Sequence record: OR983334.1
DNA: 64,000 nucleotides
From: Escherichia phage 1-6bf
Reading direction: 5' to 3' (one strand)
Shown here: in pieces, positions 21,989 through 61,361 of the stretch
Layout of the letters: each line of letters starts with the position of its first letter
Position numbering within the stretch: the stretch's first letter is position 1
Program-made: the position numbers and the translations under genes
Notes under the pieces: model-generated
What the model was told of the DNA's origin: nothing
What the model saw: only the letters and a program-made list of their open reading frames with translations
The model's database searches: none

Positions 21989-22026
21989 TGTCGATAGTTG
22001 GTTGAATTTATCTAAGGAGTAACGAA

Positions 22027-22524: not shown

Positions 22525-22560
22525 ATAAATTAATTTGCCAATCTTTTGGGAGTATAAATA

Positions 22561-23258: not shown

Positions 23259-23624
23259 ATGTGGTTTATTAAATTCGTCGTTAAAACGATTGTAGGCTTC
23301 TTCCTTGTCGTTCTCCTGTTAGGTGTCCTGCTGTCAGCTATGGGTAGCGTTAAGGCTGCAACGTTCTCCCCTGCTACGGTTGACGGTTTACAGTGCACCT
23401 ATATTGTAGAAAACTATGACACTGGTAAAAAGTCACCTAAAGTTATTATTTTACATGTAAATGATTTCGATCATGTACAATCATATGATAAAACTATTCA
23501 ACTGGTAAATGAAACCACTGGTAAGCAAATTACGGTCGATCACTTGATGCGCTCATCGTTGACGCTCTTTGATGAGTCTATGAATGAAATGGCATCCGGT
23601 AACGGTCAATGTGTAAATCCATAG
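23259..23624 (+). CDS. Membrane-anchored early protein (121 aa)
   Basis: N-terminal hydrophobic segment FIKFVVKTIVGFFLVVLLLGVLLSAMG. Confidence 0.4.
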   Translation: MWFIKFVVKTIVGFFLVVLLLGVLLSAMGSVKAATFSPATVDGLQCTYIVENYDTGKKSPKVIILHVNDFDHVQSYDKTIQLVNETTGKQITVDHLMRSSLTLFDESMNEMASGNGQCVNP

Positions 23625-24007
23625 GCTTAATCTTTCTTCTGTATTGTGCCGTAGTCATGCCTATGGTCATAATCTATCTGATTCTCTAATCCTTCCTGTA
23701 AGCCTCCTAGTGAGGCTTTTCTCTTTTATGAGGTGAGTGTATGCCTTACTCCCTTTTAGCTCGTTGTGATGCGTTTTAGGCCGCTAAATATCGCTTTACA
23801 AGCCGTTTTCTATGATGTATCGCGTGCGCCTGCTCTTTTACCTTCCTATAGTGAAAAAGTTTAAAATAATTTGCTTTACCCTATTGCAATCTCATCTGAT
23901 TAGCGTATACTTCATTTCATCGGGTACGATGTAAAACATACAAGGCAAGAAATTGCCCCGCTCTTTAAAAATCAGGTTAGAAAGTGAAAATATTCTCAAA
24001 AAGAGTA

Positions 24008-46131: not shown

Positions 46132-47922
46132 ATGTCAAAGATCATTTTGGGAGACACAGGTTGTAAGGAATGTATCTCTCATGGTCGTGATAAAACCCAC
46201 AACCACATGATTCTCTTCCGTAACGAAGAGACAGGTGAGGAGTGGGGAAGTTGTAACCGTTGTGGGAATTACGAAGTGTTCGAAAAGGGCACTACACCTA
46301 CTCCAAACGAGAGAAAAGAGTTATCCCCTGAAGAGTTGAGAGAAGTCTTAGATGATTGCTTAGAGCTTCCTCAGGGAGAGCTTACTCGACGTTTAATCCC
46401 CAAAGCTGTATCAGAGCGTTTTGAGTGTCGCATCGGTCTAAGCCAGACTGATGGGCAGACTCCAGACAGCTACTTCTTTCCTCGTGAACGTGATGGAAAC
46501 ATTGTTGGTTACGAGGTTAAGCTGCTAGATAGTAAGAAGTTTTATTATGTCGGCAGTGTGAAAGAAGCAGATTTATTTGGTATGGCACAAGCTCAACGTG
46601 GAGATGTGTACAACAAGAAGCTCTTCATTTTTGAAGACCCGCTATCTTGTATGTCTGGTTTCCATGTCCTCACAGCTTTTACAAATGCAACAAACATTAA
46701 ACCAGCATGTGTTTCTTTACCGTTCGGTGCAGGTTCAATCTCTTCTGTGTTGTCTCGTAACCGAGACTTCGTAAATGGTTTTGAGGAGGTTGTGCTCTGC
46801 ATGGACAACGATGATGCAGGTGAGATAGCTTTAACAAAAGGTCGTTCTTTATTCCCTCATGTTAAGTTTGCTCGTATTCCTAAAGGAACTTTCCCATACA
46901 ACGGTGTGGAGAAAGAGATTAAGGATGCGAATGACATGCTTCTGTCTGGTCGTGGTCAAGAGTTATTCAACATTCTCAAGTACTCAGCAAAGCGGGAATC
47001 TCCTGCTGGAGCTGTAACAATCTTTGATTGCCTTGATGATGCTCTGAAGAAAGCGGAGTGGGGTATCCCATATCCGTGGAAGACTCTGAATGAGATGACC
47101 TTCGGTATTCGATGGGGAGAGGTGGTAGCAATTGGTGGTGGAGTAGGGAGTGGTAAAACACTCATTGCTCACGAGCTGGTTGCCCATCTGTGCTTAGAGC
47201 ATGGTTTTAATGGAGGTGGCTTCTTCTTGGAAGAGAAGGTAGGCATGTCTGTTAAGAACATTGCTGGTAAGTCAGCATCAATTCCTTTCCACCGACCTGA
47301 TGTTGAATATGATGAGGAGGATTTGCGTAATGAAGCACTTCGTTATGCAGACAAATTCTTCTTGTATGACAACTTCGGACAGAACGAATGGGAAGACATT
47401 AAACAGTGTATCCGTTTCTGGGTAGTTGAAAACCAGTGTAAGTTCATCATCCTTGATAACATTACCGCTCTGGTGTCTCATTTAACACCTTCAGAGATTA
47501 ACACTGAAATCAGTAAGATTGCTTCCGAGCTTGCTGGTATGTGTAAAGAATTAGACTTTACCGCTTTCGTGCTATCTCACCTTAATGCTCCGGCAGGTGG
47601 TGCTCCTCATGAAGAAGGTGGACAGGTACGTGAAGTACAGTTCACTGGCTCTCGTTCTCTTATGCGTTGGTGTCAGTGTATCATTGGCTTTGAGCGTGAC
47701 AAGCAAGCTGATGGCTTAGCTAAGAACATCTCAGTCATTCGATTGCTGAAAGAGCGTAACTATGGTCAGACTGGTGTCTGTTATACTAAGTATATCAGTG
47801 AAACCGGTAGGCTTGTAGAAAGGGAAGACTTTGAAGTCGATGAAGATAATCCATTCGTTTTAACTAATGGAGAGGATGCAGCTTCTCTCGTCAACCAAGC
47901 AGATGGAGCTTCACCGTGGTAA
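46132..47922 (+). CDS. DNA primase-helicase (T7 gene 4-like)
   Basis: N-terminal zinc ribbon CKEC..CNRCGN, central primase region, helicase Walker [10 protein letters not shown] and Walker B-like IILDNIT. Confidence 0.7.
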
Positions 47923-48473
47923 AGAAAAAGAAGAAAGTGTTTGCATTCGATATCGAGAGTAATGCACTGTACGATGACATAACTAAAGTATGGTGTATTT
48001 ATATCTTCGATGTTGAAACTGGTGAAAGGTGGGGCTATCGGCCTCACCAAATCGAAGACGGGATTCGTAAACTGACAGAAGCAGATGTGCTCGTGGGTCA
48101 TAATATTATTGACTTCGACTTACCTGCTCTGAAGAAGATGTATCCCTCTTTGATTAAATATAATTTTAACGTCTTTGACACTTTATGTCTTAGTCGATAT
48201 CTTAAACCTGACCGTATTGGTGACAGTCCTGAGTATCCGAAAGGCGACCCTAGACGTGGCCCAAGGGGTCATGGCTTGAAGCAGTGGGGTGAGTTCTTAG
48301 GAGAACTTAAGGGCGATTATGGTGAGCAAGAGGAAGCATGGGATGCTTTCACTGAAGATATGTTTACTTATTGTGAACAGGACGTTAACTTAACTGTTAA
48401 GGTTTATCTTTTCTTGTGTGAAATCACAGGATTTGACCCTTACGACCCACCTTCATTATATTGGAAAATGTAA
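47916..48473 (+). CDS. DNA polymerase 3'-5' exonuclease domain as a separate gene (185 aa)
   Basis: FDIESNAL (Exo I), [43 protein letters not shown] align by eye with the T7 DNA polymerase N-terminal domain. Confidence 0.7.
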
Positions 48474-48474
48474 A

Positions 48475-49824
48475 ATGATTGTTATCCCGATTAACCGAAT
48501 TGAAGATAAGGTTGCTCAACAACCTGATATCACTGTTGGTCGTCACTTCATTGAACAGCTGATTAACAACAACTTGATTCCAGACTGTATTTGTCCTATC
48601 ATCACTGGTGGGGCTATTCGTGATGCTGTGCTTAATAACACAGCTCCGCATGACATTGATATCTTTATTGTCAGAGGACAGGCCCCAAGAACTCGAAATA
48701 CTTTCATCCGTCATGAGCAGTGGCAAGATCTCGGACGAGAAGTTGAAAGTAACGTTAAAGAGTGGCTTGAGTCTCAAGATATTGAATATGCATCACTTCT
48801 TGCTGAAGCTACAAACGAATCCTATGCTGGGGGTTCTCAATTAACATTCACTGATATTATTGAGTTTCAGTGGAATGGGGTTCGTATCCAATTCATGTTT
48901 AATTATCCTACTTCTATCGAAGAGGTATTGGATAACTTTCCTATGATGTGCCGTGGTGCGATGACTCTTGACAACTTATTCATGACTTCTCACGGATACT
49001 TGGCTATGACTGCCCCTTGTCCAGTGGTTGTTTCTAGTCGTGAAATCAGGTATGTTCACAAGAAGTGGCCTAATTCACAAGTGTTGAGATTTTCCTCTCC
49101 AGCAGTTGCACATCAATACATGGCCCAAACTCGATATCTTCCCACACCTCAGCCAGTTAGTCACCTAGTCAATGGATTAGGTCAGGTTTCTCTTATTGAA
49201 GATACAACAAGTGCTCTATATTGTGTTAACCGAGACATGAGTCTATTCTTTGGAATCCCTTATGAAGAGATTCAGATTATGTCTAGTCTTCACGGTTCCG
49301 GTCAGATTCATGCGTATTGGTCTGAAGGGTTGACAAATTTAACGACTAATACAGGAGGAGATCTACTTGGTCGAGAAGAAGAGCCTAGTCGTCATAACGC
49401 AATCGAAGGGGTGTTTGTAGCCCCTACAAGACGCCGAGCAAACGAAGCACGAAATATAAGCTCTACTCGTAGAACATCTTTTGAAGAAGCTCTTGGTATT
49501 ACAAGTGATTCTATGGAGAGATGGATGGCTAGTCCTTCTCGTGGTCGACCAAACGGCTTCAATGTTAGTGCACGTCAGTTCTCTGGTCAGGGTTTCGCTG
49601 TTGGTGATATCAACGCTCCTTCTCGTGTTATCTGGACTGATGAAGGCGTGGCTCAAGATGTGGTAGGTAGTCTCTCCGATCTTGATATTCCTTCTCATGA
49701 CGAACTCGCTGAGACTGTCAGCCGCAGTCTCGCTGATCGGTTTGTTGCCAACAATCCTGAAGTATTAGAGCCTCAGGTTGGTGGAGAACTGGACCACTTA
49801 ATAAATTCACAAAACATTCGCTAA
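48475..49824 (+). CDS. Pol-beta-type nucleotidyltransferase with CCA-adding-enzyme-like head motif (about 450 aa)
   Basis: ITGGAIRDAVLNNTAPHDIDIF matches the GGxVRD..DxD head motif; rest divergent; ATG at 48475 right after exonuclease stop. Confidence 0.45.
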   Translation: MIVIPINRIEDKVAQQPDITVGRHFIEQLINNNLIPDCICPIITGGAIRDAVLNNTAPHDIDIFIVRGQAPRTRNTFIRHEQWQDLGREVESNVKEWLESQDIEYASLLAEATNESYAGGSQLTFTDIIEFQWNGVRIQFMFNYPTSIEEVLDNFPMMCRGAMTLDNLFMTSHGYLAMTAPCPVVVSSREIRYVHKKWPNSQVLRFSSPAVAHQYMAQTRYLPTPQPVSHLVNGLGQVSLIEDTTSALYCVNRDMSLFFGIPYEEIQIMSSLHGSGQIHAYWSEGLTNLTTNTGGDLLGREEEPSRHNAIEGVFVAPTRRRANEARNISSTRRTSFEEALGITSDSMERWMASPSRGRPNGFNVSARQFSGQGFAVGDINAPSRVIWTDEGVAQDVVGSLSDLDIPSHDELAETVSRSLADRFVANNPEVLEPQVGGELDHLINSQNIR

Positions 49825-49836
49825 TAAGGAAAAAGA

Positions 49837-50370
49837 ATGAGTTTACTAGGAAGTATTGAACTGCACGATGTAATTGACAATGGTTATCTGGATGCGGAGC
49901 ATAAGTATGTTAACGCTGCTAGTGTGGATATCCGTATTGGTGATACTATCCTTGTTGAAGAACAGGCTGATGGCATCGTTGATATTGATGCGAAAGAAAA
50001 TCTTCAGTGGAAGGAAGTAAAGATTCCTGAAGAGGGTTTGGTTATCACTCCGGGTCAGTTCTTCTTGGCTCACTCTATGGAGGAGTTTAATCTTCCAGAT
50101 AACATCTCAAGTCTGTTTGTTCTGCGTTCATCTATGGCTCGTTGTGGTTTGAACCACCTCCATGCTGGTTGGGCTGATGCAGGATTTAATAGTAGTAAGC
50201 TGACATTTGAATTCCACAACGTAACCAAGCACCATAGCTTACGAGTTCGTGCTGGTATGCGTGTTGGTCAAATGGTTATGTTCGAGCACTCTCATGCAGG
50301 GGAACACTCCTATGCAGTGAAGGGTCGTTATAATAACTCTGAAGGTGTAGTTTCATCTAAAGGTGTGTAA
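49837..50370 (+). CDS. dcd: dCTP deaminase family protein
   Basis: VDIRIGD .. SSMARCGL .. GRYNNSEG align by eye with dCTP deaminase / dUTPase-fold blocks. Confidence 0.65.
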   Translation: MSLLGSIELHDVIDNGYLDAEHKYVNAASVDIRIGDTILVEEQADGIVDIDAKENLQWKEVKIPEEGLVITPGQFFLAHSMEEFNLPDNISSLFVLRSSMARCGLNHLHAGWADAGFNSSKLTFEFHNVTKHHSLRVRAGMRVGQMVMFEHSHAGEHSYAVKGRYNNSEGVVSSKGV

Positions 50371-50568
50371 ATGAAAAAGTGGATTGTTCGTGTACATGAT
50401 AACACGACTGGAGAGTTAGTAGCTGTAGATTTTGTTAAGACTCGAGAGCACGCACGTAGGGTCAAAAATCAATACAAGTCTACTTTTAGACTTAACAAGG
50501 TTACATTAGGAAGAGCTATCGTGAGTAGTGAAGGTGCTTTTATGGCAAATAGTAAGGTTTATTACTAA
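50371..50568 (+). CDS. Small protein, paralog family C member 1 (65 aa)
   Basis: MKKWIVRV..KVYY. Confidence 0.4.
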   Translation: MKKWIVRVHDNTTGELVAVDFVKTREHARRVKNQYKSTFRLNKVTLGRAIVSSEGAFMANSKVYY

Positions 50569-50777
50569 TGAGACCGATCACCATGAGACAGTTTTGGTTA
50601 GCGAAGATTAAGTGGGCATCAGGCGGGATGACTATGACTGCACTGCCCACCCGTCAACAAGCTCGAGAGTTTAAAAAGTCTATGTTCAATGTAGACTTAA
50701 CTAAGAATATTAGCATTCACAAGGCCAGAGAATATTCCTCTGGTCGTGTTTATATCAGCGGAAAGGTACATTACTAA
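50568..50777 (+). CDS. Small protein, paralog family C member 2 (69 aa)
   Basis: ..ARE..KVHY; same length class and C-terminal motif. Confidence 0.4.
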   Translation: MRPITMRQFWLAKIKWASGGMTMTALPTRQQAREFKKSMFNVDLTKNISIHKAREYSSGRVYISGKVHY

Positions 50778-50986
50778 TGAAAAAGATGTGGGCTGTTCGT
50801 GTTGTTTGGGAACAGAAGCAACACTTAGGTAAAGATAATATCAAACTGTTTAACACTCGCAAAGAGGCTCGTGTCGCTAAAAAGAACATGAAAGCTCTAA
50901 TAGGAACTGTTAAAAGTGCTGACATTCATCGCTGGTATGAAGACCCTAGCTCGGGTTCTTTTATGTCTAAAGTAATTTACTACTGA
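50777..50986 (+). CDS. Small protein, paralog family C member 3 (69 aa)
   Basis: MKKMWAVRV..KVIYY. Confidence 0.4.
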   Translation: MKKMWAVRVVWEQKQHLGKDNIKLFNTRKEARVAKKNMKALIGTVKSADIHRWYEDPSSGSFMSKVIYY

Positions 50987-51059
50987 TTGGTAGTAGATAT
51001 GGTAACTCTCAAATGTATATAGAGTACAATAAGAATTTGTATTTTTACAGGAGAGAGTT

Positions 51060-51389
51060 ATGTTAGATTTGAGTAAAGTGGCCCCGCCCACTGAAGAGAT
51101 TACAAAATCCAAGGTGATGCAACAGTTTTATCATCGTGATATGCTTGGTCGCTTTATCAAGAATCGTGATGTTGTTGCTTGGTCTATTGGGAATCAGGGA
51201 TATCTGTTGAAGGTTCTTCAGGTTACAGGTTCAACTGCTAAGCGAGTTAAGGTGTATGACCCTGAAATGGGGCGTTCTAAGTCAGTAGACCCACAGAACT
51301 GCATCGTAATTACCCAGCAGGTAATGGATAATATTGCACGTAACGTTGCTAACTCAGTTGAACTGGATGGAGAAAACCCAAATGCATAA
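51060..51389 (+). CDS. Hypothetical protein (109 aa)
   Basis: ORF track. Confidence 0.35.
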   Translation: MLDLSKVAPPTEEITKSKVMQQFYHRDMLGRFIKNRDVVAWSIGNQGYLLKVLQVTGSTAKRVKVYDPEMGRSKSVDPQNCIVITQQVMDNIARNVANSVELDGENPNA

Positions 51390-51945
51390 GAATGTTTTTG
51401 ATTTACCTGAGATCGGTCGTGACAGTTATAGCATGTTAGACCGGTCCGACCTATCAATCTCTCGCCTTGAAACAATGCAGGGTATGATTAGTGGAAACAG
51501 CCTAGAACACATCCTGAGCTGCTTACAAGCTAACATGGAACTCTTGCATATCAAAGCTAAAAACTACCACTGGAACGTCTCTGGTGCAGGATTTCAAGGT
51601 GTTCATGGTATGTTTGATGAGCTGGAAGATTACGCACGACAGGTAGGAGATCGTATTGCTGAACGTATGCGTTACCACTGTGTTAAAGTGGATGCTACAG
51701 CAGCTAACTATCTCTCTCATGCTTGGTTCTCAGAGGGTAATGCTGATCTAGACATGGACGGTATGCTCTCTGATATGTGCATGACCTTGATGTGTATTAT
51801 TGAGAAGATGGATGAGTTTGATGGTGATTTAGCCACCTACCCTGTCGATCAGAGTATGCTTCAAGAAATTAATGAAGGTCTTGGCAAGTATTGCTACTTC
51901 GTCAAGAGCAACATGTCCCATTCAAGTGGTGACGTGTCTTACTAA
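51382..51945 (+). CDS. Dps-like ferritin-fold protein
   Basis: LHIKAKNYHWNVSGAGFQGVHGMFDELEDY matches the Dps signature (HWN..G..F..H..FDE); start taken at ATG 51382. Confidence 0.6.
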   Translation: MHKNVFDLPEIGRDSYSMLDRSDLSISRLETMQGMISGNSLEHILSCLQANMELLHIKAKNYHWNVSGAGFQGVHGMFDELEDYARQVGDRIAERMRYHCVKVDATAANYLSHAWFSEGNADLDMDGMLSDMCMTLMCIIEKMDEFDGDLATYPVDQSMLQEINEGLGKYCYFVKSNMSHSSGDVSY

Positions 51946-52005
51946 AACCTCCGCCCTGTCTCCTAACCCGAGGTGGGGCGAACTTATTTATAAGGATATA
52001 GATAT

Positions 52006-52185
52006 ATGTTATCAGCAATCGTATGGGGTATTTGGGCTATCTTTATTGGTGGTGGTATTTATTGGGCTTCTGGTAAGCTTATTGAAGAAACTCCTGATAA
52101 GAAAGGTGAGATTCAAACAGCATCAACTATTATGGTTGTCGTAGCTGTTGTTATCCCATTCCTGCTTCACCTCCTGACTGCATAA
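52006..52185 (+). CDS. Small membrane protein (59 aa), paralog family E
   Basis: MLSAIVWGIWAIFIGGGIYWASGKL..; preferred over the overlapping ORF 51872-52144. Confidence 0.35.
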   Translation: MLSAIVWGIWAIFIGGGIYWASGKLIEETPDKKGEIQTASTIMVVVAVVIPFLLHLLTA

Positions 52186-52194
52186 GGATTTGAT

Positions 52195-52380
52195 ATGATT
52201 TCACTGATTGTGTGGGCCGTGTGGTCGTTAATAGTTGGTACTGTTATATATAAAGCTCGAAATTTAGCAATTAAAGAAAACCCAGCAGAAGAGGATGTTA
52301 AAGCTATCAAGCTAGGTAGTGTTGTTCTGGTACATTTTGCTATAACACTACCTCTTGTTATTATTCTTTGTATGCTATAA
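52195..52380 (+). CDS. Small membrane protein (61 aa), paralog family E
   Basis: MISLIVWAVWSLIVGTVIYKARNL.. plus second hydrophobic segment. Confidence 0.4.
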   Translation: MISLIVWAVWSLIVGTVIYKARNLAIKENPAEEDVKAIKLGSVVLVHFAITLPLVIILCML

Positions 52381-52570
52381 GGAATCCAAAGAGTGAAACT
52401 AAACCTACCTGAAGAATTACAAGCACATGCCATTATCGTTAGTGGCTGTGTGATGGGTCTTGGTCAGACAAAGAAGATTGCTCATGACCTAGCAAAAGGT
52501 CAGTATAAATCTTTTATTGTTGTTCCTGCTACCCAGCGTCATATCAACCTGTTTATTAACAAGGAATAGA

Positions 52571-52846
52571 ATGAGTAAAGTAATTAAGTTTTATAGTGAT
52601 CAGTGTGCTCCATGTAAAGCAATGGCTCCTACCTTTGAGAAGGTTGTTAAGGAGTTTGATGTAGAAGTGGAAGAGATTAACATCCTTGAAGGTGATGGTC
52701 GTGAGCAAGCTGTTAAGTATGGTGTACGAAGCATCCCTGCTTTCGTTGTGCCTGACCGTAACAGTGGTGCACACTACAGCCTCTCTGGTATGCAGACTGA
52801 AGCAAACCTGAAAGCATTTTTGGACACAGCCCTGAGCAATAAATAA
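52571..52846 (+). CDS. Thioredoxin-like protein
   Basis: ATG at 52571 with AAGGAA RBS; KFYSDQCAPCKAMAP CxxC active-site context. Confidence 0.6.
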   Translation: MSKVIKFYSDQCAPCKAMAPTFEKVVKEFDVEVEEINILEGDGREQAVKYGVRSIPAFVVPDRNSGAHYSLSGMQTEANLKAFLDTALSNK

Positions 52847-52861
52847 TAAGGATATTCACGG

Positions 52862-53518
52862 ATGAATGAACAACTACAAGCAACATTAATCGAAGCTATG
52901 GGAAGTGACAAATCTGTAGTCAATGCAGCTAGAGTATCTTTCGGTGTTGTTCGAGAAGGTGACTTAAATGAGAGAGACACAAAACTTATCAACTTCCTTG
53001 CACGGGAAAAACACTGTACTCCATTCCGACACCCGCAAGTCAGTTTCCGATGCAAAGCACCTATCGCAATTGCGAGACAGCTGGGAAAGCATCAGGTTGG
53101 ATTCTCGTGGAACGAAATGTCCCGGCGGTATAAAGATGGAGCAGTTGAAGTCTTCATCCCTAAAGAGATTTTTGCGAGACCTTCGGACCTCCATGCAGGT
53201 TCAGGGATTCAACTCATCGACGGAGAGCGAGCTGAAGCATTAATGTTGATTAATGATGCATATGAAGCTTCTTTAGCAGCATATGATAAGTTGATTGAAT
53301 TTATTGCACCAGAGCAAGCTCGATTTGTTCTTCCTCAGGGGATGATCACTGAGTGGGTGTGGACTGGTTCTTTGTATGGCTGGTTTGAGTTGTGCCGTCA
53401 GCGACTATCCTCTCACGCTCAATATGAAGTTCGAGTGTTTGCTAAATCCGTAGATGAAGAGATGGCTAAGCTCTACCCAATCTCGTGGGCAGCTCTGAAG
53501 AAAACTTTGGAGAATTAA
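52862..53518 (+). CDS. ThyX-like flavin-dependent thymidylate synthase homolog with non-canonical KHQ in place of RHR
   Basis: VNAARVSFG, TPFRH, KAPIAIARQLGKHQVGFSWNEMSRRY, LSSHAQYE align by eye with ThyX blocks; RHR replaced by KHQ. Confidence 0.55.
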   Translation: MNEQLQATLIEAMGSDKSVVNAARVSFGVVREGDLNERDTKLINFLAREKHCTPFRHPQVSFRCKAPIAIARQLGKHQVGFSWNEMSRRYKDGAVEVFIPKEIFARPSDLHAGSGIQLIDGERAEALMLINDAYEASLAAYDKLIEFIAPEQARFVLPQGMITEWVWTGSLYGWFELCRQRLSSHAQYEVRVFAKSVDEEMAKLYPISWAALKKTLEN

Positions 53519-53519
53519 A

Positions 53520-53762
53520 ATGGTTAGGAAGAATATTTGGATTCTGAGTCGTGTTGAGGATGCAGACAGAGGAGAGGATACAGAAATTCTTTGCTCTTTC
53601 ACTGACTATCCTACAAAGCAGCAGCTTGAGGATGTTGGAGTAGAAGAGGATGTTTCTCAATCCCTTTTTGATAAAATGGTTTCCAACTTAACAGCCAAAC
53701 CCTTTGGTTACTCCTACTACATGCTTGACTGTGTGGAATTATTCTCACCCAACAACATTTAA
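53520..53762 (+). CDS. Hypothetical acidic protein (80 aa)
   Basis: ORF track. Confidence 0.3.
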   Translation: MVRKNIWILSRVEDADRGEDTEILCSFTDYPTKQQLEDVGVEEDVSQSLFDKMVSNLTAKPFGYSYYMLDCVELFSPNNI

Positions 53763-53777
53763 ATTTAAGGTTGTGAA

Positions 53778-53981
53778 ATGAAAACTTTGTGGACTCTTGG
53801 TTGCCAAGACGATGACGGATATTTTTGGACTTGGAAAAGATTTCCAAAGAAGCCAACACCTGATAATCCTGCTTTAGATTGTGCTTCAGATGAAGATGCT
53901 AAGAAATTGGTAAATGGAGAAAAGGTTTGGTCTCCGGATAATGAAGTTCAGCACTCTTTAACAGAACGGGAATTTTCGTAA
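53778..53981 (+). CDS. Hypothetical protein (67 aa)
   Basis: ORF track. Confidence 0.3.
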   Translation: MKTLWTLGCQDDDGYFWTWKRFPKKPTPDNPALDCASDEDAKKLVNGEKVWSPDNEVQHSLTEREFS

Positions 53982-54304
53982 TGATTGACAGTAATACATT
54001 TAGGACTTCAAATGGAAGTGAGATAAGTCCCGCTGAAGTAATTAATCGGCACAGAAGGCAATTGATCATCCATTCCTATTTGTATTACTGGTTGGATGAC
54101 CCTATCTGGTCTGACGATAAATGGCAACAAGTTGCTAACGATCTAGTGGAGCTGCAAGCTCTGTATCCAGAGCCTACCGGAGTCTTTGACAGTGAGTTCA
54201 AAGATTGGGATGGTTCTACAGGGATGCACCTCCCACACAACGAGGCTGTTGCTTGCATGGCGACAGCTATTTATAGACTTCATAAAGAGGCTAATGTCGC
54301 ATGA
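53981..54304 (+). CDS. Standalone protein resembling the N-terminal Ia domain of NAD-dependent DNA ligase (107 aa)
   Basis: RHRRQLIIHSYLYYWLDDPIWSDDKW..LVELQALYPEP parallels the LigA block [35 protein letters not shown]. Confidence 0.4.
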   Translation: MIDSNTFRTSNGSEISPAEVINRHRRQLIIHSYLYYWLDDPIWSDDKWQQVANDLVELQALYPEPTGVFDSEFKDWDGSTGMHLPHNEAVACMATAIYRLHKEANVA

Positions 54305-54501
54305 GTGTAGTTTATGTGCTTGAGGAGTTTTCTGATGATGGTAATAACATTGTTGCCATATTCAAACATGTTCCAGATGTTGAGGATATCTTGAATGTAA
54401 CTCACTTGACTGATGTTGATAAAATCAAAGATCTCATCCGACATGACAACACCCACATAGGGGACTCTCTGTGGTCCCTTACTGAATGGACATTGTGGTA
54501 A
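54301..54501 (+). CDS. Hypothetical protein (66 aa)
   Basis: ORF track. Confidence 0.3.
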   Translation: MSVVYVLEEFSDDGNNIVAIFKHVPDVEDILNVTHLTDVDKIKDLIRHDNTHIGDSLWSLTEWTLW

Positions 54502-54507
54502 GGAGTT

Positions 54508-54753
54508 TTGATGCAATATAGAACATTCGAAGGATGGGCCAAAAAAGGAAAAGTGGTTAAGAAAGGAGAAAAATCTTCTGCTAGGACTTCTGAAGGGGTT
54601 CACCTTTTCTCTTCTAGTCAAGTAACGAACATAACCAAAGGCAAAACTGTTCCTGGAAAACCTCACTACGAAGATTTCGGATTAAAGCGCCGATATCTTA
54701 ATAGCTCAGATTATGGGTTTGATTCTCTTGATTATGACCTTTATAATTTCTGA
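54508..54753 (+). CDS. Hypothetical protein (81 aa)
   Basis: ORF track. Confidence 0.3.
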   Translation: MMQYRTFEGWAKKGKVVKKGEKSSARTSEGVHLFSSSQVTNITKGKTVPGKPHYEDFGLKRRYLNSSDYGFDSLDYDLYNF

Positions 54754-54761
54754 GGTAAATA

Positions 54762-54947
54762 ATGAAGTGCTCTAAATGTGAAGGAACAAACCTTCATTTA
54801 AGTAACAAGGTTATCAGAGAGCTTGCCAAAGGCTCTCCAACCAAAGGGAAGAACAAACGATTTACTAACGTCAGGGTTTATACAGCAATCTGTAAAGACT
54901 GTTTAACTACTGAGTGTCATTACGAAGAAATTGGAGAGCGTAAATGA
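54762..54947 (+). CDS. Small zinc-ribbon-like protein (61 aa)
   Basis: CSKCEG..CKDCL. Confidence 0.3.
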   Translation: MKCSKCEGTNLHLSNKVIRELAKGSPTKGKNKRFTNVRVYTAICKDCLTTECHYEEIGERK

Positions 54948-55684
54948 GTCGTCGTCAATCACGGAAAGAATCACGGAAAGACCTTCGTCGGGAAGCACTT
55001 GTTACTCGTAAAGGTAAGCGAGAGTATGAAGAGGTGGTTTTAGCAAAGCCTGTAGTCCCTCAGAACCAGTTTCAGTCTGAGCTACTCAATGCTATTAAGA
55101 CTAAACAAGTTGTGTTCACAGACGCTCCTGCGGGCTGTGGTAAGACCTTTGTAATCACTTCCACGGTTATTGATGCACTGAAGAGCGGTAAGATTCAGAA
55201 GATCATTCTGAGTCGTCCTTCGGTTGGCATGGGCAATTCTCTTGGGTTACTTCCGGGGGGAATGCGTGAGAAGTTTGAACCATACCTGATGCCTATTATT
55301 GATGTTATTACTCAGCGATACGGTAAGGGGTTCTATGAATGCCAAATCGGAAATGGTAACATTGAATTCGTACCTCTGGAATATCTCCGTGGTCGTTCTT
55401 TCAATGATGCTATTGTTATCGTAGATGAGTTCCAGAACACAACTAAGGATGAAGCCTTCTCCATCATGACTCGATTGGGAGAAACCTCTCAGCTGTTTTG
55501 CATGGGTGATACAAACCAGCATGATATGCGTGGTCGTGAGAGTGGCCTAACTTGGGCTACTAATTTTATTGATGAACATGATCTGTATGAGTTCGCTGAG
55601 ATTGTAGACGGCGAATCGGATGACATTGTTCGTTCTGGTTTCTGTAAAGCCATTGTTAAAGCAATGGAAAAGGTAAACAGTTAA
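54944..55684 (+). CDS. phoH: PhoH-like ATPase
   Basis: Walker A FTDAPAGCGKTF, Walker B IVIVDEFQN, GD.NQ.D block (CMGDTNQHD). Confidence 0.7.
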   Translation: MSRRQSRKESRKDLRREALVTRKGKREYEEVVLAKPVVPQNQFQSELLNAIKTKQVVFTDAPAGCGKTFVITSTVIDALKSGKIQKIILSRPSVGMGNSLGLLPGGMREKFEPYLMPIIDVITQRYGKGFYECQIGNGNIEFVPLEYLRGRSFNDAIVIVDEFQNTTKDEAFSIMTRLGETSQLFCMGDTNQHDMRGRESGLTWATNFIDEHDLYEFAEIVDGESDDIVRSGFCKAIVKAMEKVNS

Positions 55685-55978
55685 TGAAAATCGGTATTAT
55701 AGTTCGTGAGTGTTATGATGGTAGTGCAGCTCTTAATTTTTATAAAGATATTGATAAAGCTCGCTGGCTTTTAGGTTTTGGCGAGCGTACCTACCTGAGT
55801 GATGATGTAGAGGTTCTGGATGTTCAAGAAAATTTTGAACCACCGGGAGGGTGGAGTGATTAGTACTCAAAAGTCAATGATAGAAGAGGGTTTTATTTAC
55901 ACTGAGTAGGGGGTCCAAATAGCAACCTACCACAAGGAATGTGAAACCTGTAAGGTACCATTTGTAACGAAGTATATA

Positions 55979-56308
55979 ATGCAGAGGTTTTGCAATGACT
56001 CGTGTAGATGGGCCGACCCAGGAAATAGAGATAAGAGAAAGGCAGATAACGAGAGAAGAAGAGTTAGGCAACTAGCTTTTATTCGTAGAGTTAAAACATT
56101 CTATGGATGCTCTGAGTGTGGCTTTAAGGGTCACGCATCTGCTCTTCAGTTTGATCATTTAAATCCATTAACTAAGTCATTCGAACTCTCCAAAGGGCAC
56201 ACCAGATCTTTATCTCAAGTAAAAGAAGAGATGAGGAAGTGCAGGATATTGTGTGCTAATTGCCACGCCATCCACACCTTTAATCAAAGAGAATCAGGAG
56301 AAATCTAA
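55979..56308 (+). CDS. HNH endonuclease (109 aa)
   Basis: CSECGF..LQFDHLNPL..CANCH His-Me finger pattern. Confidence 0.65.
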   Translation: MQRFCNDSCRWADPGNRDKRKADNERRRVRQLAFIRRVKTFYGCSECGFKGHASALQFDHLNPLTKSFELSKGHTRSLSQVKEEMRKCRILCANCHAIHTFNQRESGEI

Positions 56309-56335
56309 TGGCAGATCATGTAGGAAAAAGAGATT

Positions 56336-56614
56336 ATGCACAAGAAAGAAGGACTGCGATCAAGCGCGGTGAAACGGGAATTGGGAGCAAGAGCGGAGAT
56401 GCTCAGCGCCACCGTGCACGTCGCATCGTTGAAAAGCGCGATGGAAAAGCTGCTGTCAGAGGTAAAGACGTTGGACACAAACGAGCTGTCAAGTCTGGAG
56501 GTTCTAATGCGTCAAGCAACTTACGTGTTGAATCAGTCAGCTCAAACCGTTCAAACGGCGGCAAAAGTGGTGATCGAGCTGGAAAAGCAGCTGGAGCACG
56601 CAAAGGAGCTTTAA
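56336..56614 (+). CDS. Coiled-coil protein (92 aa)
   Basis: Preferred over the overlapping low-complexity frame 56308-56625. Confidence 0.3.
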   Translation: MHKKEGLRSSAVKRELGARAEMLSATVHVASLKSAMEKLLSEVKTLDTNELSSLEVLMRQATYVLNQSAQTVQTAAKVVIELEKQLEHAKEL

Positions 56615-56629
56615 GCTCATCATAACATG

Positions 56630-56658
56630 AGGCTACCCAAATGGGTGGCCTTTTCATT
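56630..56658 (+). terminator. Rho-independent terminator
   Basis: GGCTACCCAAATGGGTGGCC followed by TTTTCATT. Confidence 0.55.
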
Positions 56659-56671
56659 AAAGGGCAATTAG

Positions 56672-56857
56672 ATGAAGAGAGAAATTATCAATTTTATCAA
56701 CCCTGGAAATTGCTGCCCCGGTCATGACAAATATCCGTGTGACAAATACAAAAACAGGCGTTCAGTTCGACAGCGTGCTCTCGGTATTAAAAAAGAGCAT
56801 AGATATGTGAGAAGAGTTGTCCGTCAGAAGTTGTTATTAAATGTCATCGAAGAGTAA
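56672..56857 (+). CDS. Small basic protein (61 aa)
   Basis: ORF track. Confidence 0.3.
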   Translation: MKREIINFINPGNCCPGHDKYPCDKYKNRRSVRQRALGIKKEHRYVRRVVRQKLLLNVIEE

Positions 56858-56874
56858 TCCAGTTCTAGTACAAT

Positions 56875-56906
56875 AGGCTGCCCACTTGGGTGGCCTTTTC
56901 TTTTAT
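56875..56906 (+). terminator. Rho-independent terminator (near-duplicate of 56630 hairpin)
   Basis: GGCTGCCCACTTGGGTGGCC followed by TTTTCTTTT. Confidence 0.55.
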
Positions 56907-56938
56907 ATAAACCAAATTAAACTTCTTAGGTAATAATT

Positions 56939-57196
56939 ATGTCTATTGTAAAAACCGTAACTATCATTGATGTTTGGACTAACCGTCTGGCTAAGTGGAA
57001 ATTCACTAATAACCATGATGTCAAACACAACATCAGCCTAATTGCAAACCAGATTGGTCATAATCCAAAAACAGCTCGTACTAATGTAATCCTCCGTGGG
57101 GCTGATGGGAAATTCATTTCTTATAAGAATAAAGATGTAGAGAAAGAATATCGTGTTGCAGTAGAAAACCTCATCCCATTCCCTAAAGGAGTTTAA
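56939..57196 (+). CDS. Small protein, paralog family D member 1 (85 aa)
   Basis: ..ARTNVILRGADGKFISYKNKD..ENLIPFPKGV. Confidence 0.4.
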   Translation: MSIVKTVTIIDVWTNRLAKWKFTNNHDVKHNISLIANQIGHNPKTARTNVILRGADGKFISYKNKDVEKEYRVAVENLIPFPKGV

Positions 57197-57197
57197 C

Positions 57198-57473
57198 ATG
57201 AATAAGTTAGCTATGGTACAGATTCGAGACACATACCCCAACCATCCAGAGCAGACTTGGTCTTATTTGTTAACTGAAAGCAAAACTATTGACAGATGTT
57301 CTGTAGGGATTGATACTATCCCAACCAGTATTACATTACTCCCTCATTTAACAGCCAGAACTAATGTGATGTTACGTGATACCAAAGGTAAGTTTATCTC
57401 TTATCGTGACTCACGAATCAATAACGAAATTAAATCTGCTATGGAATCTTTAGTGCCATTCCCAAAAGGTTGA
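57198..57473 (+). CDS. Small protein, paralog family D member 2 (91 aa)
   Basis: ..ARTNVMLRDTKGKFISYRDSR..ESLVPFPKG. Confidence 0.4.
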   Translation: MNKLAMVQIRDTYPNHPEQTWSYLLTESKTIDRCSVGIDTIPTSITLLPHLTARTNVMLRDTKGKFISYRDSRINNEIKSAMESLVPFPKG

Positions 57474-57476
57474 GTT

Positions 57477-57899
57477 ATGCCATTACCAGCTAGACACCAA
57501 AACCGTTTCTTAGTTCTTAAGTGGGATGATATCGAAATGAATCTCACTGAGCACGAACTAGATCTGTTCCATGAATTATTATCGGAGATTCGATCTGGTA
57601 TTCCTGAACGTCAATATGTGGTTATCAGTGATAAACACCCTCAAGAGTTTGAAGAAGCTTGGGGTATGAAGCTGGCTTACATCCAAAGAGCTATCCGAGA
57701 AAGAGAAGAAGTCGCTAACCAAAGGGTTGTGGCTCATTTAGTACGAGAGCAACCTCGTGAAGCTAGGGCTAACCATGCACCACCTCCACCTCCTCCTTGG
57801 ACAGTTGTCAACGGGACGGTTAGGGCTTATAGTGATGAAGCCACCATGTTGAATGTAGTAGAAGATAACCAAGCATTTACAGATTTACTTTACCAATAA
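57477..57899 (+). CDS. Hypothetical protein with poly-Pro tract (140 aa)
   Basis: ORF track; PPPPPPW. Confidence 0.35.
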   Translation: MPLPARHQNRFLVLKWDDIEMNLTEHELDLFHELLSEIRSGIPERQYVVISDKHPQEFEEAWGMKLAYIQRAIREREEVANQRVVAHLVREQPREARANHAPPPPPPWTVVNGTVRAYSDEATMLNVVEDNQAFTDLLYQ

Positions 57900-57915
57900 T
57901 TTAAAGGAGTATAAA

Positions 57916-59616
57916 GTGAGCAACCCGGACGCTCTTCCATTTTTGACAGAGATGACTGTCGCTGATATAATCTCTAAGCAAGCAAAGCACGGAGTGAGTT
58001 TCAACCGAAGAAATGCTCGGTGGTATGTTCACCTCCTTAAAGAGATTATTGTTAATATTGACAGAGAGTTGATTCCTCTCTTACCTAAGATGAGATTAGA
58101 TGGCTCTACTTATATGAAGCCGTTTAAGAAGTCTGGAGCTTTGCAGAAGTGGCCTCAAGCCTATTGTGATAGAGTTGGGCTGAAGAGAGAAGACATTGGT
58201 GGAGCTTTCACCTGTGTCGAATACGTAGACTTTGACCCATCGAAAGATGCACGAGTTAAAGAAGCTCTTATGGATGAGGGCTTTCTTCCTCCAGAGTTTA
58301 ACGTATCTAAGAAGCCTTGGAATACTTTCGAAATTAAGAAAGATATGAGAAAGTATGGAACATACCAAGCATGGTATACTGCTTGGATGCGAGGAAATGC
58401 TAAGCAGAAGCAGACAGCCGAGATGGTTGACGCTGATATTAAGAAGTTCTTAGAAAAGCATTTTAGGTTTAAAACTAAGAACTATATGAAGGCTTACGTG
58501 TTTGGTTTGGGATTAAACCCGAATCGACGTAATCCTGTAACGTTTGATGAGATTAAGAAAGCACTAGCCACTTCAAACAAGTGGCCTACAGCTCCTACAA
58601 ACCTCGAGGAGACTCTTGAAGAAGGGTTAGGGGGTGAGCTAGGGAGTGTCGGAAGTTTGCTTAAGAGACGCGTTGTAGCGGCTCACAGGCTAGGTCTTAT
58701 CAGTGGACTCATAGCAAAGGAACGCGAAGATGGTAAACTTTCGGCAGAAGCTAACAGCTGCGCTACGCCGACTTTTCGATTCAAACATCGTATCGTGGTT
58801 AATATTCCCTCCCGTGGTTTGTTTGGTCACGAGTGTCGCAGTTTGTTTGAGTCTGACTATAACTCAGACAGTGATCATTCTCGTCCTTTCGTTATTACTA
58901 ACGTTGTTCCTGATGGTTGTTATATACGAAAAGGTACTAACGTAATTTATGAGAAAGGTAAACCGGGGAAGAAAGACAAACCTGTAGGTGCTTACAAATA
59001 TTACATACCCGCTGGTAAAGAAGTATTCTTAGGGTATGATGGTTCTGGGCTTGAACTTCGTATGCTCGCTCACTACCTCATTAAAGAGTGTAGGGATATG
59101 CTTGCTGAGGCAATTGAAGAGAACAACCCAGCTAAGAAAGCTCTGGCAGAACGTGGTTTAGCTTCTGCTATTATGTATCGTGATATTCTCCTTGAAGGTG
59201 ATATCCACTCCCACAACCAGAAACTTGCTGGTCTTCCTACTCGTGACAACGCTAAAACGTTTATCTATGCATTCAACTACGGTGCTGGCGATGCTAAGCT
59301 TGGTTCAATTGTAGGTGGTGGGGCTGACGAAGGTTCAGTGATGCGAGCACGTTTCTTGGCAGAGAACCCATGTATTGCAATCCTCATTGATCGTATGACA
59401 GAAAAGGCTGCTCAAGGGTACTTGATTGGTGTTGATGGTCGTAAGATTACAATGAGACGAGATGCCACTGGTAAAGTTATGGTTCATAAAGCCCTTAACA
59501 CACTCCTGCAATGTGCTGGTGCTGTTGTTATGAAATACGCTATGATGTTCCTTAACAAGTGGATTGAGAGGGATGGGGTTCGTTGTGCTAAGGTAATTGA
59601 TATGCATAAACTTCAT
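57916..59616 (+). CDS. Family A DNA polymerase, polymerase domain (exon 1; 3' boundary uncertain, ORF track frame runs to 59637)
   Basis: GTG start with AAGGAG RBS; motif A LGYDGSGLELRMLAHY, motif B RDNAKTFIYAFNYGAGDAKLG, GVDGRKI..ALNTLLQCAGA; aligns by eye with T7 DNA polymerase. Confidence 0.7.
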
Positions 59617-60214
59617 TGTGCATGTAAAAGTTGGTGAACTCGGTGAAACCCGACCATTAAGTTGAGGGCAATACCGAGCTAAGCTATTAGGAGGTGATAT
59701 GGCTAAGAAAGATCTAGTGCTAGAAACAACTAGCACAGGATGTATCATCCCTATCTCACACAAACTAAATAAAGATGGTTACTTTCGAAAAATGATAAAT
59801 GGCAAATGGGTCATGTATCACAGATACGTCATGGAAGAGAAATTTGGAAACATCCCTGACGGTTATGAAGTTAACCATAAATGCAAGAATAGAGCTTGTT
59901 GCAATACTGACCATCTAGAAATCTTAGAAGGTAGTGCACATGCTATCGAGTCAAACACTGGCAGAAACAGAGAAAGACAGAATGCTGCTAAAGAGTTCTG
60001 GCTTAACAATGAATGCACTGGTGTTGCTCTTGCAGAAAGGTTTGGTGTGAGCTTTGGAATCGCTTGTAGATGGATTCGAAAGTGGAAAGTGTAGAGACTA
60101 TCCTGCGGGAGTAGGGGGTTAACAGGGAAACCCTCGAAGCGCCAACAACAGCAAATTAGCTATGCTGTTATGATATAGTCCGATACCCGAAGTAATTTGG
60201 GAATAACATAAATG
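59617..60214 (+). mobile_element. Candidate group I intron carrying an HNH endonuclease ORF, interrupting the polymerase before motif C
   Basis: Exon 1 frame stops before motif C; downstream reading DEGQ..GLNWMHTH supplies motif C and the conserved C-terminus right after a G at 60214; HNH ORF lies between. Confidence 0.45.
59699..60094 (+). CDS. HNH homing endonuclease (intron-encoded candidate)
   Basis: GYEVNHKCKNRACCNTDHLEI HNH motif; AGGAGG RBS. Confidence 0.7.
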   Translation: MAKKDLVLETTSTGCIIPISHKLNKDGYFRKMINGKWVMYHRYVMEEKFGNIPDGYEVNHKCKNRACCNTDHLEILEGSAHAIESNTGRNRERQNAAKEFWLNNECTGVALAERFGVSFGIACRWIRKWKV

Positions 60215-60366
60215 GATGAGGGCCAGTTCTCAGTTAATCGTAACGATGTACAGAAACTCAAAGAGCACACTGAGCTTTGCGTTAAGAAAGCTGGTGAGTA
60301 CTTGAACATGGAATGTCCTCTGGCATCTGATTGTCAGATTGGACTTAACTGGATGCATACGCACTA
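60215..60366 (+). CDS. DNA polymerase C-terminal segment (exon 2) with motif C Asp-Glu
   Basis: DEGQFSVN..ECPLASDCQIGLNWMHTH parallels the T7 polymerase end HDEIQVGC..LLDTEGKMGPNWAICH. Confidence 0.45.
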
Positions 60367-60375
60367 AGGTGGGTT

Positions 60376-60567
60376 ATGAGTGTTCGTGATTATTATAAAT
60401 CTTGGGCCATCTTCAGTGGTGGCTCCACTATTACCGCGCTGAATAGTCAATTCTGTATCTTTGAAACAGAGAACTTAGCAATTAGCAAAGCAGCGGAGCT
60501 AGTTCGAAAGTTTCCAGACAAAGCATTCACAATTAAGAGATTAGAGATACCTGCATTGGCAGAGTGA
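60376..60567 (+). CDS. Hypothetical protein (63 aa)
   Basis: ORF track. Confidence 0.3.
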   Translation: MSVRDYYKSWAIFSGGSTITALNSQFCIFETENLAISKAAELVRKFPDKAFTIKRLEIPALAE

Positions 60568-60723
60568 ATAAATAAGACGAATGAACTATTCTTATTGATT
60601 GGTTCGTAACAAGGAGATTGAAGTGGAAGAGATGCCATCGGATTGGTGTTATCGTCAAAGCGCCATCTGTAGTGAACAAGGACGTGCTGATGAAGCACAA
60701 TATTATTTAGAACTGGCTGAATT

Positions 60724-60921
60724 ATGGAAAGAGAGAGAAAAAGAATGACTGCAACTGAACTGAAAGAAACCATATCCACTGAAGAAGGTAAAGCTTTCTT
60801 CTTATCTCAAGTACACTCTATGGGTAAAGATGCCCTTCGCCAAGCAGTCGTTGAGCTTACTGGTGTAGTGATTGACTTGAGTATTGAAAATGAAACACTT
60901 GAAGCTAAAGTGAATAGTTAA
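60724..60921 (+). CDS. Hypothetical protein (65 aa)
   Basis: ORF track. Confidence 0.3.
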   Translation: MERERKRMTATELKETISTEEGKAFFLSQVHSMGKDALRQAVVELTGVVIDLSIENETLEAKVNS

Positions 60922-60925
60922 ATAA

Positions 60926-60952
60926 GAAGCTGCCTTCGGGCGGCTTTTCTTG
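60926..60952 (+). terminator. Rho-independent terminator
   Basis: AAGCTGCCTTCGGGCGGCTT followed by TTCTT. Confidence 0.5.
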
Positions 60953-60968
60953 TCTAAAGGGTTTAGAT

Positions 60969-61361
60969 ATGAATATTGGTTTAGATTACGATGACACTTA
61001 CACCTCAAATAAAAAGCTGTGGCGCTCTGTGGTGGCATTAATGCAAGCCGAAGGTTATGATGTACGCTTTGTAACCTATCGCTTTGCAGAGCCTAATGGG
61101 TACGATAATCACGACATTAAGATTGATGCAGAGTGTTTGCAGATTCCTATAATCTTTTGCAATGGTGTACAGAAGGATGAGGTATGTCGGCAGCTAGGTT
61201 TCTTTGTAGATATCTGGATTGACGACTTCCCTGTTGGAATCCCCCAAAAGGACCACCTAGATGGGATGCTGAAGGGTGTAAGACTTAATGACCTTAGGGC
61301 AGCACCTCCTGTAGAAATAGCCGCTCCTGTGTACTCTGAGGAGCCTTTGGTGATTCGATGA
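60969..61361 (+). CDS. Putative HAD-like phosphatase / nucleotidase (130 aa)
   Basis: N-terminal hydrophobic-DxDxT pattern (NIGLDYDDT); weak. Confidence 0.3.
   Translation: MNIGLDYDDTYTSNKKLWRSVVALMQAEGYDVRFVTYRFAEPNGYDNHDIKIDAECLQIPIIFCNGVQKDEVCRQLGFFVDIWIDDFPVGIPQKDHLDGMLKGVRLNDLRAAPPVEIAAPVYSEEPLVIR

Follow-up and report, generated by a model that had tools for sequence, protein, structure and literature searches.

A probable T7-type family A DNA polymerase of Escherichia phage 1-6bf encoded as a separate exonuclease gene and an intron-interrupted polymerase gene

Introduction

Is the replicative DNA polymerase of Escherichia phage 1-6bf a single polypeptide, or is the enzyme encoded in pieces? 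The question is raised by a stretch of 64,000 nucleotides (nt) from sequence record OR983334.1, hereafter called the window, in which all positions are counted from the first letter. A gene for a 3'-5' exonuclease is found at 47916-48473 and a gene for a family A DNA polymerase starts only at 57916. A preliminary description of this DNA had taken the two to be separate genes for complementary parts of a T7-type family A polymerase, about 9.4 kilobases (kb) apart, with the polymerase gene ending at 59637 and about 20 genes in between, and had held the enzyme to be genuinely split, not intron-interrupted. We find that T7 gp5 is indeed the best solved relative of both products, and the separation is borne out at 9,442 base pairs (bp). 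The end of the polymerase gene must be corrected to 57916-59607 joined to 60215-60367, and we count approximately 26 intervening genes. In our view, the phage probably encodes a T7-type family A replicative polymerase in pieces, as an exonuclease of 185 amino acids (aa) and, 9.4 kb downstream, a 614-aa polymerase whose gene is interrupted by an intron.

Positions 47000-61000 of the window (14 kb) match 100 phage records, nearly all of them from Escherichia phages that belong to the phiEco32 group (Kuravirus, Gordonclarkvirinae); phage 1-6af (98.4%) and FH3 (97.8%) are the closest. By these matches, the window belongs to a Kuravirus (phiEco32-like) coliphage. The RefSeq entry of phage 172-1 has the same layout, with genes named 'DNA primase/helicase' and 'DNA polymerase exonuclease subunit' followed by 26 other coding sequences (CDS) and then 'DNA polymerase'.

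The exonuclease gene

The features considered first are the exonuclease gene and the gene that precedes it.

47916-48473, plus strand: stand-alone DEDD 3'-5' exonuclease, 185 aa, candidate proofreading subunit (Pfam, T7 gp5 alignment, conserved residues)
46132-47922, plus strand: T7 gp4-like primase/helicase (Pfam DnaB_C, E = 9.3e-11; weak Toprim_2 match)

The exonuclease open reading frame (ORF) begins with GTG, 7 nt downstream of a GGAG, and its start is overlapped by 7 nt by the end of the primase/helicase gene, which has orthologues in 172-1 and PE006 with the annotation DNA primase/helicase. The product matches Pfam family DNA_pol_A_exo1 (PF01612) above the curated cut-off (E = 1.2e-8). 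When compared with the sequences in the PDB, its residues 10-160 align with residues 3-178 of T7 gp5 (E = 2e-12), and the only matches at E <= 1 are T7 DNA polymerase chains, through their N-terminal domain. Among 34 stand-alone homologues sharing 31-80% identity, there is no change at D12, E14, N63, D68 or D156, and Y152 is conserved in at least 90%. These residues constitute Exo I (DxE; D12 and E14), Exo II (Nx(2-4)D; N63 and D68) and Exo III (Yx3D; Y152 and D156), which places the product with the DEDD (DnaQ-like) exonuclease domains of PolA. The conserved T7-type blocks that the preliminary description saw in this product are therefore real and are these three motifs.

The relatives of the exonuclease indicate where it came from. 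A word-indexed search returned only relatives of 100-250 aa, down to 34% identity, and an exhaustive HMMER search returned 2,848. Among the best 150 cluster representatives of these 2,848, 80 are 540-800 aa in length, 39 have at most 260 aa and 31 are intermediate. The 540-800-aa relatives are fused PolA proteins with the exonuclease domain at the N-terminus and approximately 40-45% identity; in all six of the long relatives that were checked, Pfam DNA_pol_A lies C-terminal to the exonuclease match. A tblastn search of phage genomes gave 1,627 records, most of which match Autographiviridae gene 5 in its 5' part, that of T7 included. Because its relatives are mostly fused PolA proteins or the 5' part of gene 5, the product of 47916-48473 is best described as a detached copy of the PolA proofreading domain and not as an unrelated DnaQ nuclease.

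The position of the break

The second part of the question is whether the polymerase still carries an exonuclease domain of its own. We built a custom hidden Markov model (HMM) from the exonuclease family together with the first 200 residues of fused polymerases. This profile matches the exonuclease over positions 11-187 and the polymerase only over positions 187-219, which correspond to polymerase residues 11-43. It thus finds no exonuclease domain in the polymerase, the sole match being to the linker that follows this domain. The N-terminal 3'-5' exonuclease that T7 gp5 has in the same chain is absent here and is supplied by the gene at 47916-48473.

The fold of the polymerase leads to the same boundary. 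An AlphaFold (AF2) model of a 98%-identical relative, calculated from a 56-sequence alignment with a predicted local distance difference test score (pLDDT) of 91.1 and a predicted template modelling score (pTM) of 0.79, opens with a pair of long helices and lacks an RNase H-like sheet; these helices correspond to the segment following the exonuclease domain. The best fold match of the model, found with Foldseek, is T7 DNA polymerase (E = 2.4e-25). A further comparison is provided by a fused relative of 611 aa (P0180), in which residues 2-145 match residues 7-164 of the exonuclease with 40% identity, while residues 164-281 and 302-611 match polymerase residues 12-132 and 243-614 with 38% and 44% identity, respectively. 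The polymerase has an insertion of approximately 110 aa (residues 133-242) that is absent from P0180.

Set against a fused T7-like polymerase, the products of the two genes complement each other exactly. Judged from these alignments, the polymerase starts exactly where its fused homologues leave the exonuclease domain, and the break falls at the interdomain linker. We regard the split as genuine because a complete stand-alone exonuclease is accompanied by an exonuclease-less polymerase that starts at this very domain boundary. An intron spanning the gap was considered and ruled out, as the gap consists of about 26 ordinary genes. That part of the preliminary description which held the enzyme to be split, with no intron across the gap, therefore stands, but its claim that the enzyme is not intron-interrupted fails for the polymerase gene itself, as described below.

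The polymerase gene

Comparison with 172-1 divides the polymerase gene of the window into two exons.

57916-59607, plus strand: DNA polymerase exon 1, codons 1-564, with thumb, fingers, motifs A and B and the motif C His (blastn, Pfam, T7 gp5 alignment)
60215-60367, plus strand: DNA polymerase exon 2, codons 565-614, with the motif C Asp-Glu and the C-terminus ...NWMHTH (blastn against 172-1)

The ORF starts with GTG at 57916, with AAGGAG 6 nt upstream, in agreement with the start and ribosome-binding site given in the preliminary description, which also recognized motif A (D375) and motif B (R443, K447, Y451) correctly. The uninterrupted 172-1 gene has 1,845 nt and encodes 614 aa. In blastn comparisons its nucleotides 1-1692 correspond to 57916-59607 (95%) and its nucleotides 1693-1845 to 60215-60367 (96%), so that the window gene contains a clean in-frame insertion of 607 bp relative to 172-1. 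The insertion splits motif C between the His and Asp codons, with ...KVIDMH on one side and DEGQFSV... on the other. The ORF at 57916-59637 reads 30 nt into the inserted DNA and its final nine residues, KLHCACKSW, are intron read-through; the unspliced product would have motifs A and B but not the catalytic Asp and Glu that belong to motif C.

The spliced polymerase has 614 aa and its alignment with T7 gp5 reaches the last residue. Pfam DNA_pol_A is matched with E = 1.4e-13, and the best solved match by sequence of the 172-1 orthologue is T7 gp5, with which it is colinear over T7 residues 295-704 (E = 1e-32). No variation is seen among 56 homologues in D375 and E380 of motif A, in R443, K447, Y451 and Y455-G456 of motif B, or in H564-D565-E566 of motif C. 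The three motifs, A (DxSxxE), B (RxxxKxxxFxxxYG) and C (HDE), are colinear in a palm-fingers-thumb fold, as in family A, with motif C complete only once the intron is removed. The alignment with full-length family A polymerases that had been suggested as a check accordingly shows the two products matching complementary parts.

We note that a second group I intron, absent from the window, occurs in the polymerase gene of other kuraviruses, as at L010:3865-4167 in a kuravirus-like metagenome contig. It is 303 nt in length, has no ORF, matches Rfam RF00028 with 102 bits (E = 3e-27) and is inserted in motif B between ...KTFIYAFN and YGAG. This motif B intron explains the many 'polymerase' matches of approximately 450 aa that cover 72-74% of the query, including P0226 and that of Aeromonas phage BUCT695.

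A group I intron in motif C

The inserted DNA comprises two features.

59608-60214, plus strand: group I (IA2-like) intron, predicted to be self-splicing, 607 nt (insertion relative to 172-1, Rfam, homologues, covariation)
59699-60094, plus strand: predicted HNH homing endonuclease, 131 aa, with its own AGGAGG ribosome-binding site (Pfam HNH_3, E = 7e-12)

The elements of a group I core can be placed on the insertion. P1 is formed by 59602-59607 with 59618-59623 (AUGCAU/GUGCAU) and has a U.G pair at the 5' splice site; P3 by 59630-59636 with 60140-60146; P7 by 60096-60100 with 60176-60180; and P9 by 60186-60201 with a GUAA loop. Exon 1 ends in U and the terminal intron G is at 60214. The core aligned by Rfam includes the conserved AGACUA and GAUAUAGUCC elements (R and S), and the G-U-A linker between P7.1 and P7.2 is present in the window copy (UCC-N4-GGA, GUA, GGGGG).

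Over 83-98% of its length, the intron shares 65-70% identity with elements inserted into gene 5 in T7-like phages (13a, K1F, VSG32 and many others), and it also matches the polymerase gene of Vibrio phage Vp_R1. In all eight copies examined, which are 598-613 nt in length, the insertion follows CAU in an identical site, CAU-GA(U/C)GA(G/A). We tested the proposed pairing on seven cores from which the ORF had been removed. They were aligned with MAFFT, P7.2 being removed before realignment; in the T7-like copies the outer two pairs of P3 stayed misaligned, and P8, which was also misaligned, was kept outside the formal count and checked by eye only. The 36 proposed pairs (P1, P3, P4, P5, P7, P7.1 and P9) are 100% paired in 246 cells, and nine of the 36 are changed on both sides in a compensatory manner. 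None of 500 shuffled controls reached the observed pairing, and slid controls were 30-50% paired. The T7-like copies have exon GUGCAU and internal guide GUGCAC, from which it follows that the guide has covaried with the host codon. The ribozyme core of the intron is conserved and covaries, and excision of the intron restores the reading frame.

A related intron has been described. The introns of phages phiI and W31 lie at PolA site 881 in E. coli Pol I numbering, that is His881 of the HDE motif, are of type IA2 with P7.1 and P7.2 joined by G-U-A, and carry an HNH ORF in P6a (PMC3428280). The window intron has the same site 881, the same GUA linker and the same ORF position, and by these features 59608-60214 is a group I intron homologous to the phiI/W31 type. 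Our literature searches found no paper on an intron in polymerase genes of Kuravirus or phiEco32-like phages; we consider that the intron belongs to a known family and extends it to a new host lineage. An intein was ruled out, as the insertion has in-frame stops and an RNA core.

The HNH_3 match of the encoded protein is above the Pfam cut-off. The ORF (396 nt) stops 1 nt before AGACUA, upstream of P7, and is therefore located in the P6 region. Orthologous ORFs of 131-132 aa are found in the introns of 13a, K1F, VSG32, Vp_R1, ECBP2 and PAS59. The motif C intron is present in approximately 10 of about 100 kuravirus-group records, among them 1-6af, FH3, PE006, pEC-N1203-2Af.1, PAS59, ECBP2 and SU7. 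This patchy distribution, extending to T7-like and Vibrio phages, is consistent with mobility.

Alternative interpretations

Some observations weigh against the interpretation given above. We found no biochemical report of an association between the exonuclease and the polymerase in the literature searched. In a rough neighbour-joining tree of exonuclease domains the fused and stand-alone forms interleave, so that it does not establish whether the split arose once or in several fission events. The Rfam scan of the intron region, which covered 59400-60500, gave a single match, in the 3' half, to RF00028 (60022-60202; 26.2 bits, E = 2e-4), which falls short of the gathering score of 50, probably because the model is broken up by the 396-nt ORF and has no match in the 5' half. 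For P6, P6a and P7.2 of the window copy we obtained no convincing drawing. Finally, the kuravirus copies of the intron end in three bases (60212-60214) that form an AUG in frame with exon 2, where the T7-like copies have AAG, and separate translation of a 51-aa fragment from it is formally possible.

We infer from the complementarity of the two polypeptides that they act as one enzyme. An unlikely, although not negligible, alternative is that the exonuclease is an independent DEDD nuclease, active in recombination, in the processing of primers or host DNA or in transient proofreading in trans, perhaps recruited by the helicase, and that the polymerase works without a bound proofreader. The conserved adjacency of the exonuclease and primase/helicase genes in Kuravirus, the LUZ24-like phages and a metagenomic relative (L013) would be understandable on this basis, as would the distance of the polymerase gene, which lies 1.9-9.4 kb away behind many other genes. 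However, since the exonuclease corresponds to the N-terminus of gp5, the adjacency is more simply explained as a relic of the T7 order of gene 4 and gene 5. Furthermore, the break falls exactly on a domain boundary, and the exonuclease has its closest relatives among polymerase-fused domains and not among free nucleases. The proofreading-subunit interpretation is favoured over an independent nuclease because the exonuclease-less polymerase co-occurs with the exonuclease in every context examined, four of four (the window, 172-1, MHN1 and L013), a pairing that is reported to be group-wide (PMC9965538).

Still less probable, in our estimation, is a variant in which the overlap with the primase/helicase gene is functional. 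The proofreader would then be a helicase-associated, trans-acting subunit and the polymerase would be clamped by the thioredoxin of the phage, which would grip a domain similar to the thioredoxin-binding domain of T7. If true, a helicase-delivered proofreader combined with a thioredoxin clamp would be a replisome architecture unlike the single-chain gp5 of T7. As a separate part of this less probable reading, the motif C intron common to gene 5 of Autographiviridae and the kuravirus polymerase gene would be a record of recent homing from one unrelated phage family to another at a 100% conserved target.

With regard to the 607-bp insertion, the alternative is that it is never spliced, so that a free-standing HNH gene leaves polypeptides of 573 and 51 aa which either reassemble non-covalently or form a dead polymerase. 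GenBank does list three separate CDS in this region: the intron-bearing kuravirus records annotate a DNA polymerase, a homing endonuclease and a 51-aa 'DNA polymerase-like protein'. The in-frame ATG at the end of the insertion and the low Rfam score point in the same direction. Against this, the insertion has a group I core with the U.G splice-site pair, the terminal G and the R and S elements, its proposed pairs are formed without exception across seven homologues, nine of them with compensatory changes, and its guide changes with the exon codon in the T7-like copies. The homologous insertions of 13a and K1F are annotated in RefSeq as introns within a joined gene 5 CDS, and the phiI and W31 introns self-splice according to Bonocora and Shub (2004) as cited in PMC3428280. 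The ATG is not preceded by a good Shine-Dalgarno sequence, and a 51-aa peptide containing the catalytic Asp is implausible as a separate subunit. We therefore think it very unlikely that the insertion remains unspliced, and we attribute the 51-aa CDS at 60212-60367 in the GenBank records to the AUG that happens to end the intron. In this phage and approximately 10% of its relatives, a polymerase deposited as three CDS would thus be one intron-containing gene of 614 codons, which is of practical value for annotation.

The preliminary description had itself named a possible refutation, in which 47916-48473 would encode an unrelated DnaQ-type exonuclease and the polymerase starting at 57916 would have a full exonuclease domain of its own. 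We found nothing in favour of this, and it can be dismissed, as every PDB match of the exonuclease at E <= 1 is to T7 gp5, the profile search finds no such domain in the polymerase, and the polymerase model begins with the helices of the post-exonuclease segment.

Proposed scheme

The interpretation that we prefer, a T7-type polymerase made in pieces, suggests the following scheme. The exonuclease would be made from its own gene, and the overlap of start and stop codons suggests that its translation is coupled to that of the primase/helicase. The polymerase mRNA would first lose the 607-nt intron and would then encode the 614-aa polymerase, while the HNH endonuclease would spread the intron to intron-less alleles. 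The exonuclease and polymerase would associate non-covalently and so reconstitute a proofreading polymerase of the gp5 kind, in which the phage thioredoxin may be the clamp.

As to origin, the split may have arisen once, when an ancestral gp5-like gene adjoining gene 4 received an insertion of DNA in its interdomain linker; the adjacency of helicase and exonuclease would be what remains of this arrangement. The gap would later have been filled with genes of nucleotide metabolism (dcd, a Dps-like ferritin, trx, thyX and phoH) and may have grown from 1.9 kb, as in the LUZ24-like phages, through 3.2 kb in a metagenomic relative to 9.4 kb in the window.

The locus would help to show how homing introns pass from one unrelated phage family to another by way of invariant catalytic motifs, and it would be a convenient natural case in which to study how a family A polymerase copes with a separated proofreading domain. 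Neither question is new.

Genes between the two parts

One of the genes in the gap may be relevant to the function of the polymerase.

52571-52846, plus strand: phage thioredoxin, candidate processivity cofactor (Pfam Thioredoxin, E = 1.7e-13)

The polymerase has an insertion of approximately 80 aa at residues ~56-136 (window ~58081-58323), in the position of the thioredoxin-binding loop of T7 gp5; its residues 63-134 align with T7 gp5 residues 295-362 and overlap the position of the loop. The phage thioredoxin may thus be the processivity factor, or clamp, of the polymerase, and a coupling of this kind has been hypothesized for the relative Privateer (PMC7881722). Apart from thioredoxin, the genes confirmed by Pfam in the gap are dcd, a ferritin/Dps-like gene, ThyX and PhoH, as had been listed in the preliminary description, whereas the HNH and nucleotidyltransferase genes listed with them match below the curated cut-offs.

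Directly after the exonuclease gene, 48477-49824 encodes a large protein of up to 468 aa if read from an upstream GTG at 48418, with approximately 450 aa in the annotated orthologues. It matches the PolyA_pol/CCA-adding head domain weakly, with E = 7.7e-4 and below the cut-off, and its relatives are annotated as nucleotidyltransferase. The free-standing HNH-like ORF at 55979-56308 (109 aa) matches Pfam HNH with E = 3.6e-4, just below the cut-off; to judge from the annotation of 172-1, it may lack a counterpart in that phage, and would then be a second mobile nuclease gene of the region. The 107-aa product of 53981-54304 consists only of the Ia (NAD+-binding) domain of an NAD-dependent DNA ligase (Pfam Nlig-Ia, E = 3.8e-35); its relatives are annotated as 'DNA ligase', for which it is far too short. 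Two sets of small ORFs look like local paralogue arrays: three in tandem at 50371-50986 (65, 69 and 69 aa), all ending in ...KV.YY, and two adjoining ORFs at 56939-57473 (85 and 91 aa) with TARTNV.LR..GKFISY in common. Elsewhere in the window, at ~22000-24000, the GC skew, negative at first, becomes positive, a pattern that would be compatible with the coding strand switching between two divergent gene blocks.

Comparison with known systems

The split into exonuclease and polymerase is already known, having been published and annotated for phiEco32-like and LUZ24-like phages. The YF01 study describes a polymerase and 5'-3' and 3'-5' exonuclease 'subunits' that are separately encoded throughout the phage group (PMC9965538), and the study of phage tf reports the same separation in every phage that belongs to the LUZ24 group (PMC3517423), citing Savalia et al. 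(2008) for a similar organization in phiEco32. The phiEco32-like phages (phiEco32, 172-1, NJ01, YF01, SU10 and others) have orthologues of the window genes with 92-98% nucleotide identity in the same order and do not differ from the window in the split. Most of them, 172-1 for example, have an uninterrupted polymerase gene, whereas the window belongs to the intron-bearing minority.

In the LUZ24-like phages (Bruynoghevirus) the 'DNA polymerase part II' also lacks an exonuclease domain and is 39-42% identical to the window polymerase over its full length. In MHN1, a phage of this type (L009), the exonuclease gene, of the 'DNA polymerase part I' type, overlaps the end of the primase/helicase gene as it does in the window, and the upstream synteny of amidoligase, GATase and gamma-glutamyl cyclotransferase genes is also shared. 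The gap in MHN1 is, however, only 1.9 kb with seven small genes, compared with the 9.4 kb and about 26 genes, dcd, trx, thyX and phoH included, of the window. The metagenomic relative L013, with a polymerase of 41% identity, has retained the order helicase, exonuclease, dcd, ..., polymerase, and its gap measures 3.2 kb. With the order kept and gaps of 1.9, 3.2 and 9.4 kb, the place where the two domains were once joined behaves like an insertion site that can expand as accessory genes are added. The LUZ24 polymerase gene contains a 669-bp group I intron that is spliced in vivo (PMC10914365).

Escherichia coli Pol III core, in which the alpha subunit and the DEDD proofreader epsilon (DnaQ) are separate polypeptides, offers a functional analogy only: it is a family C enzyme and the association of its subunits is proven, whereas the enzyme of the window is of family A and we infer the association.

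With regard to the intron, the phiI/W31-type elements with I-TslI in gene 5 of T7-like phages (13a and K1F) share with the window copy the insertion site, the GUA linker and a 131-aa HNH ORF that is placed alike. Their host gene encodes a fused gp5, whereas that of the window intron encodes an exonuclease-less Kuravirus polymerase. The window copy differs from them further in that its P1 fits AUGCAU and not GUGCAU, its P5 loop is longer, its P7.2 is shortened and its 3' end is AUG instead of AAG.

The closest solved system for both halves remains T7 gp5, with Exo I-III and motifs A, B and C colinear. The window polymerase resembles it also in having a Tyr at the position of T7 Y526 and a C-terminus ending in ...H. 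T7 gp5 is one chain of 704 aa that works with E. coli thioredoxin; in the window, by contrast, the chain is broken after the exonuclease domain and the phage encodes a thioredoxin of its own.

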